Assembly (NCBI RefSeq): GCF_041248615.1
Contig: NZ_CP158426.1
Source of the DNA: Escherichia coli
GTDB lineage: Bacteria; Pseudomonadota; Gammaproteobacteria; Enterobacterales; Enterobacteriaceae
Strand: one strand, 5' to 3'
DNA: 64,000 bases
Positions 11,583 through 41,508 of this stretch are shown here, in pieces. The first letter of the stretch is position 1, and each line of letters starts with the position of its first letter. The notes below the pieces were generated by a model. That model did no database searches and had not been told where the DNA came from. It saw only the letters and a program-made list of their open reading frames with translations. A program made the translations under genes and the position numbers.

Positions 11583-11659
<77 letters not shown>

Positions 11660-11692
11660 TCACCGTACTGCTTTTACTTCATCAAATTTGAT

Positions 11693-11769
<77 letters not shown>

Positions 11770-11802
11770 TCACCGTACTGCTTTACTTCATCAAATTTTA
11801 AT

Positions 11803-11879
<77 letters not shown>

Positions 11880-12087: not shown

Positions 12088-13185
12088 ATGAAAGGACGTT
12101 GGGTAAAGTACCTTCTTATGGGCACGGTTGTGGCAATGCTTGCCGCCTGCTCTTCCAAACCAACCGATCGCGGACAGCAATATAAAGACGGGAAATTTAC
12201 CCAGCCTTTCTCTCTGGTGAACCAGCCAGATGCCGTTGGCGCGCCGATTAACGCCGGTGATTTTGCCGAGCAAATTAACCATATCCGTAATTCGTCACCG
12301 CGTCTGTATGGCAACCAGAGTAATGTTTATAACGCGGTGCAAGAGTGGCTGCGCGCAGGCGGTGATACCCGCAATATGCGCCAGTTCGGCATTGATGCCT
12401 GGCAGATGGAAGGTGCCGACAACTATGGTAACGTGCAGTTTACCGGTTATTACACGCCGGTAATTCAGGCGCGCCATACCCGCCAGGGCGAGTTCCAGTA
12501 TCCTATTTACCGTATGCCGCCAAAACGTGGTCGTCTGCCGTCTCGTGCGGAGATCTACGCGGGGGCATTGAGTGATAAATATATTCTCGCTTACAGTAAC
12601 TCCCTGATGGATAACTTCATTATGGATGTGCAGGGTAGTGGGTATATCGACTTTGGTGATGGCAGTCCGCTTAACTTTTTCAGCTATGCAGGGAAAAACG
12701 GTCATGCCTATCGCAGCATTGGTAAGGTGCTGATCGACCGTGGCGAAGTGAAAAAAGAAGATATGTCGATGCAGGCGATTCGTCACTGGGGCGAAACACA
12801 CAGTGAAGCCGAGGTTCGCGAGCTGCTGGAACAGAACCCGTCTTTCGTCTTCTTTAAACCGCAATCTTTTGCTCCGGTGAAAGGGGCAAGTGCGGTGCCG
12901 CTGGTTGGTCGCGCGTCAGTTGCCTCTGATCGTTCCATTATTCCGCCAGGTACTACCTTGCTGGCAGAAGTGCCGTTGCTGGATAATAACGGCAAATTTA
13001 ATGGTCAGTACGAACTGCGTCTGATGGTGGCGCTGGATGTCGGTGGTGCAATCAAAGGCCAACACTTCGATATCTATCAAGGGATCGGGCCGGAAGCCGG
13101 ACACCGCGCAGGTTGGTACAACCACTATGGACGTGTCTGGGTGCTGAAAACCGCCCCGGGCGCAGGTAACGTCTTTAGCGGCTGA
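12088..13185 (+). CDS. mltA: Membrane-bound lytic murein transglycosylase A (lipoprotein)
   Basis: 365 aa from MKGRWVKYLLMGTVVAMLAACSS (lipobox LAAC); the track ORF has a spurious N-terminal extension running into the tRNA genes. Confidence 0.9.
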   Translation: MKGRWVKYLLMGTVVAMLAACSSKPTDRGQQYKDGKFTQPFSLVNQPDAVGAPINAGDFAEQINHIRNSSPRLYGNQSNVYNAVQEWLRAGGDTRNMRQFGIDAWQMEGADNYGNVQFTGYYTPVIQARHTRQGEFQYPIYRMPPKRGRLPSRAEIYAGALSDKYILAYSNSLMDNFIMDVQGSGYIDFGDGSPLNFFSYAGKNGHAYRSIGKVLIDRGEVKKEDMSMQAIRHWGETHSEAEVRELLEQNPSFVFFKPQSFAPVKGASAVPLVGRASVASDRSIIPPGTTLLAEVPLLDNNGKFNGQYELRLMVALDVGGAIKGQHFDIYQGIGPEAGHRAGWYNHYGRVWVLKTAPGAGNVFSG

Positions 13186-13273
13186 TGTGATATTCTGTAT
13201 GCCGTTTTTACGGATATGACAGGGTGAGGGGTAACCTCACATCCTGATTATTGACTAAGTGCGCGTTGTTCAT

Positions 13274-13371
13274 GCCGGATGCGGCGTGAACGCCTTATCC
13301 GGCCTACAAATCATGCAAATCCAAAATATTGCAGGAGTTATGTAGGCCTGATAAGCGTAGCGCATCAGGCA
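13274..13371. repeat. BIME: two REP elements in inverted orientation
   Basis: gccggatgcggcgtgaacgccttatccggcctaca (13274-13307) and tgtaggcctgataagcgtagcgcatcaggca (13341-13371) match the REP consensus. Confidence 0.8.
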
Positions 13372-13423
13372 TTTATGCGTTTAGGGTGAGGGATAACCTC
13401 GCCCTTTTTAATTCTGAGGTGCT

Positions 13424-14230
13424 ATGTCTGTGGTAATTAGTGATGCATGGCGTCAGCGTTTTGGTGGCACAGCGCGTCTGTATGGTGAAAAAGCGTTGCA
13501 ACTGTTTGCTGACGCGCATATTTGTGTGGTTGGTATCGGTGGTGTCGGTTCCTGGGCGGCGGAAGCGCTGGCGCGCACGGGGATTGGCGCAATCACGCTT
13601 ATCGATATGGATGATGTGTGCGTCACCAATACCAATCGGCAAATTCATGCCCTGCGCGATAACGTTGGGCTGGCAAAAGCGGAAGTTATGGTGGAGCGTA
13701 TTCGCCAGATTAACCCGGAGTGCCGTGTAACGGTGGTGGATGATTTCGTGACGCCGGATAACGTAGCGCAGTATATGAGCGTGGGTTATTCGTACGTGAT
13801 TGATGCCATTGATAGTGTACGGCCCAAAGCGGCGCTGATTGCTTATTGTCGGCGCAATAAAATCCCACTGGTCACAACCGGTGGCGCGGGTGGGCAGATT
13901 GATCCGACGCAGATTCAGGTTACCGATCTGGCGAAAACGATTCAGGACCCGCTGGCGGCGAAGTTGCGCGAGCGCCTGAAAAGCGATTTTGGCGTAGTGA
14001 AAAACAGTAAAGGTAAGCTCGGCGTGGATTGCGTGTTTTCTACTGAAGCGCTGGTGTACCCGCAGTCAGACGGTACGGTGTGTGCGATGAAAGCCACGGC
14101 AGAAGGGCCGAAGCGGATGGATTGTGCATCTGGATTTGGCGCGGCAACGATGGTGACCGCCACCTTTGGGTTTGTTGCGGTTTCTCATGCGCTGAAGAAG
14201 ATGATGGCGAAAGCGGCGCGTCAGGGTTAA
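13424..14230 (+). CDS. tcdA: tRNA threonylcarbamoyladenosine dehydratase (E1-like, CsdL)
   Basis: 268 aa; ThiF/MoeB-type nucleotide-binding motif VVGIGGVGSWAAEALARTG. Confidence 0.9.
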   Translation: MSVVISDAWRQRFGGTARLYGEKALQLFADAHICVVGIGGVGSWAAEALARTGIGAITLIDMDDVCVTNTNRQIHALRDNVGLAKAEVMVERIRQINPECRVTVVDDFVTPDNVAQYMSVGYSYVIDAIDSVRPKAALIAYCRRNKIPLVTTGGAGGQIDPTQIQVTDLAKTIQDPLAAKLRERLKSDFGVVKNSKGKLGVDCVFSTEALVYPQSDGTVCAMKATAEGPKRMDCASGFGAATMVTATFGFVAVSHALKKMMAKAARQG

Positions 14231-16364: not shown

Positions 16365-16570
16365 AAAAAAAAGCACCGCAATTAGGCGGTGCTACATTAA
16401 TCACTATGGACAGACAGGGTAAATGTACAGGAAGTGAAAAAAGGTAGCTTTGCTACCATGGTCTGAATCGCAGACCAATTGCAAACACAACAACACAACA
16501 TCACAACCGTAAGCCAAAAGTTCACCAGAACACGCATTCCGATAAAACTTTTCGTTCCGGCTCAGGAAGT
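16365..16570 (-). ncRNA. gcvB: GcvB small regulatory RNA
   Basis: Minus strand reads ACTTCCTGAGCCGGAACGAAAAGTTTTATCGG...GTTGTGATGTTGTGTTGTTGTGTTTGCAATTGG...GCACCGCCTAATTGCGGTGCTTTTTTTT, including the G/U-rich R1 region and intrinsic terminator; divergent from gcvA as expected. Confidence 0.9.
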
Positions 16571-34789: not shown

Positions 34790-35155
34790 GTCGACAGGGA
34801 GTCAGACAACGAAGTGAACATCAGGATGATGACACTTCTGAAGGACACACCAGGATGGTGTTTCAGGGAAAGGCTTCTGGATGAAGCGAAGAGGATGACG
34901 CAGGACGCGTTAAAGGACACCTCCAGGATGGAGAATGAGAACCGGTCAGGATGATTCGGTGGGTCAGGAAGGCCAGGGACACTTCAGGATGAAGTATCAC
35001 ATCGGGGTGGTGTGAGCAGGAAGCAATAGTTCAGGATGAACGATTGGCCGCAAGGCCAGAGGAAAAGTTGTCAAGGATGAGCAGGGAGCAACAAAAGTAG
35101 CTGGAATGCTGCGAAACGAACCGGGAGCACTGTGAATACAGTGCTCCCTTTTTTT
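34790..35155 (+). ncRNA. csrB: CsrB small RNA (CsrA-sequestering)
   Basis: Begins GTCGACAGGGAGTCAGACAACGAAGTGAACATCAGGATGATG; about 17-18 CAGGA(U/A)G / AGGA motifs seen; ends in the GGGAGCACTGTGAATACAGTGCTCCCTTTTTTT terminator; lies between syd and yqcC. Confidence 0.9.
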
Positions 35156-35200
35156 ATTCCTGCTATCCTTCGCGGCAGTTTTTCTTATTGAGGTTGCTTT

Positions 35201-41283: not shown

Positions 41284-41310
41284 ACCGGCTCTTTCAGGAG
41301 CCGGTTTGAG
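41284..41310 (+). terminator. Putative terminator after gudD
   Basis: accggctc-tttcagg-agccggt hairpin followed by TTG. Confidence 0.5.
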
Positions 41311-41343
41311 ATTACTGACGAAGTGGCTTACGGGGACGGTTTT

Positions 41344-41444
41344 CCCCTCGCCCTTTCAAGGAGAGGACCGGGGTGAGGGTAATCATTCGCACTTGCGTTG
41401 GCCTGTTCCCCTCACCCTAACCCTCTCCCCGGAGGGGCGAGGGG
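41344..41444. repeat. GC-rich imperfect palindromic intergenic element (unclassified)
   Basis: cccctcgccc (41344-53) pairs perfectly with gggcgagggg (41435-44); inner ggggtgaggg pairs with cccctcaccc. Confidence 0.6.
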
Positions 41445-41508
41445 ACTGTCTGTGCTGCTCCCAGCATTGGCATTGGACGGAACCTATTTTGACTCGACAA
41501 AACGTCCA

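Follow-up and report, generated by a model that had tools for sequence, protein, structure and literature searches.

BIME-1 elements, also named RIP or RIB, are non-coding, imperfect palindromes of approximately 140–150 bp, in which a Y-type REP and a short Z-type REP in inverted orientation are joined by an L linker and bounded by non-REP arms. The linker of this family carries an IHF site, and the label Z1 for the short REP comes from literature descriptions (PMC3333891). Variation among strains in the presence or absence of BIME-1 is ascribed to Bachellier 1997 in a later paper (PMC1187871). REPINs, which are associated with the REP-associated tyrosine transposases (RAYT, or TnpA-REP), likewise consist of two inverted REPs that form a long hairpin and are non-autonomous. 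The mechanism of REPIN dissemination is unknown (PMC8266576), and in Pseudomonas these elements form tandem clusters that include flanking sequence (PMC3116915, Fig. S7). TnpA-REP cleaves single-stranded DNA at C/T (here and below, a slash within a sequence, outside square brackets, marks the cleavage site or junction), and its IS200/IS605 relatives make no target duplication (PMC3333891). Since the 1980s it has been an open question by which route REPs and BIMEs become dispersed; a reproducible footprint of their insertion constrains this mechanism.

The BIME upstream of ygdL (tcdA) in Escherichia coli was flagged earlier as attenuator-like by Naville and Gautheret (PMC2965389). Because the BIME-1 family, its size and its presence or absence among strains (PMC1187871) as well as this particular copy (PMC2965389) have been published, the element between mltA and tcdA counts as already known. 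In composition, size (approximately 140 bp), dispersal and location outside coding sequence, at a gene's 3′ end, it agrees with BIME-1, and the element itself is not different from the family; what is added here is that BIME-1 copies are flanked on both sides by directly repeated copies of the terminator hairpin that was their target.

Layout of the mltA-tcdA gap

The features of the gap and several landmarks are listed in Table 1 by their positions in the window, that is, the whole 64-kb stretch of E. coli DNA analyzed here. The gap is identical to that of K-12 and O157:H7, and no repeat feature is listed at this place in the K-12 RefSeq annotation. The extension of the mltA frame across the upstream tRNA genes in the six-frame list of open reading frames is an artefact.

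Table 1. Features of the mltA-tcdA gap and landmarks in the window
Feature	Position	Strand	Basis and remarks
metZWV (three identical initiator tRNA-Met)	11586–11879	−	landmark
mltA CDS (365 aa)	12088–13185	+	ORF end and annotation in matching E. coli records; TGA stop 13183–13185
Left hairpin copy	13221–13245	+	AGGGTGAGG-GGTAA-CCTCAC[AT]CCT; repeat proper 13221–13240 = AGGGTGAGGGGTAACCTCAC
BIME-1 left non-REP arm (GATTATTGACTAAGTGCGCGTTGTTCAT)	13246–13273	+	conserved in the fepA-entD and gldA paralogs
Y-type REP, CTAC end at 13304–13307	13274–13307	+	exact match to consensus GCCGGATGCGGCGTRAACGCCTTATCCGGCCTAC; internal inverted repeat
BIME-1 L linker	13308–13341	+	Rfam ES036 match 13307–13349, 46.5 bits; paralog alignment
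Short Z-type REP (GTAGGCCTGATAAGCGTAGCGCATCAGGCA)	13342–13371	+	inverted relative to the Y REP; inverted-repeat pairs; identical in two paralogs
BIME-1 right non-REP arm (TTTATGCGTTT)	13372–13382	+	alignment to consensus stops at position 140 of 152
Right hairpin copy and TTTTT	13383–13409	+	AGGGTGAGG-GATAA-CCTCGCCCT; repeat proper 13383–13402 = AGGGTGAGGGATAACCTCGC
tcdA (ygdL) CDS	13424–14230	+	directly 3′ of the predicted terminator; ORF and annotation
GcvB	16365–16570	−	landmark
CsrB	34799–35158	+	landmark

The two repeats are identical at 18 of 20 positions and lie 162 bp apart, measured from start to start, and each is palindromic, with a stem of 9 bp and a loop of 5 nt. The original prediction had described the flanks as short palindromes around two inverted REPs, both of which is correct; it had placed the left repeat exactly (13221–13240) and the right one, given as 13382–13401, one base off its actual position of 13383–13402. 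When a 2-nt interruption is allowed (..CAC-AT-CCT), the left copy reaches 13245, and its counterpart is the 23-nt right hairpin at 13383–13405. The right copy starts 197 nt past the mltA stop and ends approximately 15 nt ahead of the tcdA ATG (13424). Within the 64-kb window, the 14-mer core GGGTGAGGGNTAAC has exact matches only in these two copies, and 6 matches with up to 2 mismatches were found versus 0.85 expected. A chance or low-complexity origin of the repeats was considered and is ruled out by the exact 162-bp difference between filled and empty alleles described below. Judged from the sequence, the repeats are two copies of the putative intrinsic-terminator hairpin of mltA, duplicated around a BIME-1 insertion.

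The interval between them (13246–13382) is a complete BIME-1, in the order arm, Y REP, L linker, Z REP and arm. Its boundaries were defined by a 152-nt consensus, itself derived from three copies, which reads CAGATTGTTGACAAAGTGCGCGTTGTTCA-Y-AAAATCATGCAAATTCAATATATTGCA..-Z-GTTTTGCGTTTGTCATCAGTCTC and has weakly inverted ends (CAGATTGTTGAC and GTCATCAGTCTC, complementary by eye at 9 of 12 positions). At mltA-tcdA, the left arm is without the two initial nucleotides of CAGATTGTTGAC..., its alignment starting at consensus position 3, and the right arm lacks the last 12 nt (GTCATCAGTCTC). The full 142-bp insert, including the non-REP arms, is a dispersed repeat: every genome contains at least 36 places that match it. 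In genomes without an insert at mltA-tcdA, the best paralog (fepA-entD or gldA) matches insert positions 6–142 at approximately 89% identity; in both paralogs, the inversely oriented Y and Z REPs are identical to those of the mltA-tcdA copy. Relative to the family core TGCAAATTCAATATATTGCA, the L linker differs at 2 of 20 positions, and it is within the presumed IHF core that this copy deviates from the paralogs. A donor locus with the same flanks was ruled out, as the best paralogs, fepA-entD and gldA, share the BIME-1 and not the hairpin. The element is extragenic and present as a single copy in the window, and a query for tandem junctions (at least 80% coverage) revealed no tandem BIME-1 at this locus in 5,426 E. 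coli genomes. As a separate observation, the Rfam model ES036 (CssrF sRNA) matches the L linker of BIME-1 at window positions 13307–13349; what this model captures thus seems to be part of a dispersed repeat and not a single-copy sRNA gene.

In a terminator scan, the right copy scores as an intrinsic terminator, with a 9-bp stem that includes 6 G-C pairs, a loop of 5 nt and a TTTTT tract. Its fold energy (−17.2 kcal/mol) is close to that of the empty-allele hairpin (−17.7 kcal/mol), and the left copy, which carries a 2-nt bulge and has no T-tract behind it, folds at −14.7 kcal/mol. The right copy corresponds to the sole copy of empty alleles and outgroups, and the hairpin is conserved as far as Salmonella. 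Since the left copy has the weaker fold and no T-run, mltA transcripts of filled strains should cross the BIME and stop at the right copy, which would thus still end mltA transcription, now passing through the BIME. The left copy, lacking a T-tract, is presumably free to decay.

Filled and empty alleles and the history of the insertion

A match was found in 5,425 complete E. coli genomes; the full mltA-tcdA region is present in 2,751 of them, and the alleles of the other genomes sampled are exactly 162 bp shorter. The empty alleles that were aligned, drawn from ST131, E2348/69, O111:H11 and an avian strain, read ACAGGGTGAGGG[G/A]TAACCTC[A/G]CCCTTTTTAATTC, that is, one perfect hairpin followed by a T-run. 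An exact 38-mer of the single-hairpin junction is found in 1,104 genomes in its (G,A) type, at least one of these matches coming from a filled allele with a (G,A) right copy and not from an empty allele, and in 886 genomes in its (A,A) type. Among filled alleles, the window has the hairpin pair (G,A)/(A,G), an O152:H23 strain has (G,A)/(G,A) and a further lineage has (A,A)/(A,A), and the hairpin variants of the empty alleles are the same as those found in filled alleles. The polymorphism between filled and empty alleles in E. coli is probably the outcome of repeated precise deletions between the two hairpin copies, of gene conversion, or of both. A REP doublet in the mltA 3′ UTR, just 5′ of tcdA, is present in about half of the strains, and the insertion footprint at this locus explains this common polymorphism.

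These alleles bear on the suggestion in the original prediction that the flanks are a duplicated insertion target, which has held up: the empty alleles of about half of E. coli have one copy of the motif and exactly 162 bp less, and the outgroups E. fergusonii and Salmonella also have one copy. When loci without REPs were searched for both flanking copies, none carried both, the empty site being a single copy.

In E. fergusonii, the mltA-tcdA gap is empty and 76 nt long, with a single (A,A) hairpin and no BIME, and the Salmonella gap, also without a BIME, has one related hairpin, GGGGTGAGGAATAACCTCACC, with a T-run behind it; Citrobacter has different REPs and a different hairpin. As E. fergusonii and Salmonella carry one hairpin without a BIME, the single hairpin is taken to be ancestral. 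E. fergusonii could have lost BIME-1 secondarily, in which case the polarity would be set by Salmonella alone. The insertion is shared by E. coli and E. albertii and is therefore old. In E. albertii, the right junction is GCGTTT/AGGGTGAGG (GCGTTT/AGGG) and the right hairpin copy is intact, and the left copy is full-length (23 nt) and decayed (AGAGTGAGAAATAATCTCGCTCT). This full-length left copy points to an original duplication of 23 bp, followed by relaxed constraint on the copy without a T-tract. The size would have to be read from E. albertii, since the junctions in the window are non-canonical, with a 2-nt interruption in the left repeat and 2 nt plus 12 nt missing from the ends of BIME-1.

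A further state of the locus is found in Escherichia sp. MOD1-EC7003, which has a tandem array of at least seven hairpin-plus-BIME-1 units with a 162-bp period, spread over two contig ends. The first hairpin copy of this array is split by an extra AT-rich insert of approximately 270 bp. Another array in the same genome comprises six tandem units with a 160-bp period, in which the left arm and Y REP of BIME-1 are followed by another REP type; this is a hybrid, amplified BIME.

Flanking hairpins at other BIME-1 loci

Other BIME-1 loci were sampled by a pattern scan of one genome per species, which yielded 54 loci, all in Escherichia species or Pseudocitrobacter, and 37 after removal of orthologs; because it was drawn with one exact 22-base pattern, this sample favors well-preserved copies. 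The loci were aligned to the 152-nt consensus, and a local direct-repeat score was computed between each locus's own left and right flanks, with mismatched flank pairs as the control. The score exceeded the 99th percentile of the control at 16 of the 37 loci, ranging from 11 to 32 (control mean 6.1, 99th percentile 10), and at 14 of these 16 the flank repeats were direct rather than inverted. A strong hairpin lies directly at the left end of BIME-1 in 28 of 37 loci. The repeats that abut BIME-1 are 16–25 bp long, comprise the whole stem-loop including its flanking A/T pairs, and are centered within 1–2 nt of the axis of symmetry of the hairpin; examples are the arrangements AACGGCTCCTTACAGAGCCGTTT/BIME/AACGGCTCCTTACAGAGCCGTTT and CACCGCCGGGTAACCCCGGCGG/BIME/CACCGCCGGGTAACCCCGGCGG, each followed by a T-run. 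Since the flanking hairpins differ between loci, they derive from the target.

By the same scoring, no significant flanking repeat was found at the remaining 21 loci. Truncation, or the disappearance of one copy as seen at yvcK-uvrB, accounts for some of these; others, such as fepA-entD, are unexplained. At yvcK-uvrB, empty alleles (CLSC36, ATCC 25922) have a single hairpin and strain E69 has both copies; in the common filled allele, the right copy is gone via a 20-nt deletion, which illustrates why some loci now show one hairpin. At ymdF-rutG, empty alleles (CFT073, ACN001) also have a single hairpin, so that empty alleles of this kind are known from three loci, namely mltA-tcdA, ymdF-rutG and yvcK-uvrB. 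The ymdF-rutG hairpin, in addition, carries BIME-1 in opposite orientations in two lineages, at approximately 82% identity, which reflects either two independent insertions or inversion through the palindromic flanks.

The element between gudD and barA requires separate consideration, because the original prediction had it share a core with the mltA flanks. This claim did not survive: the likeness amounts to approximately 12 bases with 2 mismatches (GGGTGAGGGTAATC at 41371–41384), located inside a separate family. Window positions 41329–41452 belong to a GC-rich palindromic repeat family, which we take to be Box C-like and which is dispersed over a median of 14 places per genome at 80–90% identity. 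It is imperfectly palindromic and intergenic, contains GGGGTGAGGG and CCCCTCACCC, and is unrelated to the mltA hairpin apart from those bases. This gudD-barA copy is itself polymorphic: a match of at least 99% occurs in 32 of approximately 5,400 records, and most genomes have their best match, at 80–90%, elsewhere. The window is therefore not K-12 DNA, despite the identity of its mltA-tcdA gap to that of K-12. A link of another kind does connect the two loci. Directly past the gudD terminator hairpin (window region 41290–41330) lies GAGATTACTGACGAAGTG, which matches the left end of BIME-1 at 14 of 18 positions and looks like a remnant BIME-1 arm with the Box C-like repeat next to it, and E. 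coli SCPM-O-B-8794 carries a complete BIME-1 at the gudD terminator with a perfect 23-bp duplication of the hairpin. Both observations indicate that mltA and gudD are terminator-targeted BIME-1 sites.

Proposed insertion mechanism and comparison with known systems

The reading that we favor, and which we regard as probable, is that BIME-1 inserted into the mltA terminator hairpin and duplicated it, with deletion, amplification and decay following later and the breaks falling at the feet of the hairpin. As the alleles compared show, BIME-1 entered the hairpin in an ancestor of E. coli and E. albertii, and the insertion duplicated the entire hairpin, probably of 23 bp, leaving one copy on each side, of which the right one retained the T-tract. 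The two copies are substrates for unequal recombination, by which about half of E. coli genomes have probably lost the 162-bp unit precisely, with restoration of the single hairpin, and one Escherichia lineage has amplified it in tandem. We infer that the two strands were cut one hairpin length apart, at the feet of the hairpin or of a cruciform extruded from it, and that BIME-1 was joined in before the gaps were filled; such breaks and gap filling would give a duplication of hairpin length, centered on the axis of symmetry. TnpA-REP is the obvious candidate enzyme. A target duplication is not predicted by its biochemistry, given its cleavage of single-stranded DNA at C/T and its duplication-free relatives (PMC3333891), and on inspection the BIME-1 junctions (..TT/CAGATTG and ..CAGTCTC/AA..) show no obvious fit to the C/T rule. 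More generally, and only tentatively, BIME-1 may be structure-targeted mobile DNA that integrates at terminator hairpins and duplicates the whole stem-loop (16–25 bp, axis-centered).

An explanation that we find unlikely, albeit the most serious of the competing ones, attributes the duplication to host replication or repair, either by template switching at stalled forks or by cutting of a cruciform by junction nucleases with capture of BIME-1, the hairpin then being a fragile site and no recognized target. It accords with the palindromic, secondary-structure-prone nature of both target and BIME-1, with a duplication that equals the maximal stem-loop, as expected for cuts at the base of an extruded structure, with the ymdF-rutG hairpin that holds BIME-1 in both orientations, and with RAYT relatives that make no duplications (PMC3333891). 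However, the termini of BIME-1 are sharp and recurrent (..TT/CAGATTG.., ..CAGTCTC/AA..), which is more typical of end-specific enzymatic joining, and microhomology was not seen at the junctions. A further point against host repair is that, to our knowledge, E. coli has no efficient end joining.

We regard it as very improbable that the repeats were not made by insertion at all, either because tandem terminators pre-dated BIME-1 or because the locus was filled from the start and every single-hairpin allele arose by deletion. Deletion between repeats clearly occurs, the empty haplotypes (G,A) and (A,G) match copies of filled alleles, and the insertion is old enough to be common to E. albertii, all of which would suit such a history; yet Salmonella and E. 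fergusonii have one hairpin, single-hairpin empty alleles exist at three loci, and many unrelated loci show the arrangement with a hairpin of their own. The least credible proposal, that the flanks are a small dispersed family (GGGTGAGGG-TAAC) moving with REP clusters and common to gudD-barA, draws on the 12-base likeness at 41371–41384 and the presence of GGGTGAGGG in the gudD-barA repeat, but it is contradicted by the occurrence of only two exact copies in the window, the single hairpin without REPs in Salmonella and E. fergusonii, the different locus-specific hairpins beside other BIME-1 copies, and the assignment of the gudD-barA element to a different family, found at a median of 14 places per genome. 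The small repeat family tied to REP clusters that had been suggested originally is thus replaced by a locus-specific mltA hairpin, other BIME-1 flanks being other hairpins, and the idea of a dispersed motif was also rejected by a pattern search, which found no further exact copies in the window.

As to novelty, no report of hairpin or terminator duplication by BIMEs was found in the literature searched, with the older papers (Gilson 1991, Bachellier 1997, Boccard & Prentki 1993) lying outside it, and the general hairpin-length footprint of BIME-1 is possibly, though not probably, new. If new, it supplies a defined target, the terminator hairpin, it limits the chemistry to two breaks spaced by the length of a hairpin, and it gives a reason for the 3′-end position of these elements. 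If BIME-1 is structure-targeted in this way, this would explain why it lies at the 3′ ends of transcription units without destroying termination, it would imply symmetric breaks at both feet of a hairpin or cruciform, as otherwise known from the duplication of CRISPR repeats, and it would offer a concrete target for reconstituting REP/BIME transposition.

Compared with known systems, the models for REPINs and IS200/IS605 involve no target duplication, whereas well-preserved BIME-1 copies have a structure-defined duplication of 16–25 bp as a rule. Bacterial MITEs (ERIC/IRU, Correia, RUP) resemble BIME-1 in being short and non-coding, with imperfect TIRs, direct-repeat flanks and filled and empty sites. 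Their duplications, however, are short and fixed (2–9 bp, often TA), whereas the length of the BIME-1 duplication follows the hairpin and is centered on its axis of symmetry. The integration of CRISPR spacers by Cas1-Cas2 offers a similar geometry, as a palindrome is attacked at both borders and gap repair duplicates it as a whole, as proposed here; the likeness is one of geometry only, neither Cas proteins nor a leader or an array being involved with BIME-1. Class C bacterial group II introns, in turn, insert next to intrinsic terminator stem-loops and thereby stay away from genes. These retroelements integrate downstream of the hairpin and, unlike BIME-1, leave it as a single copy.
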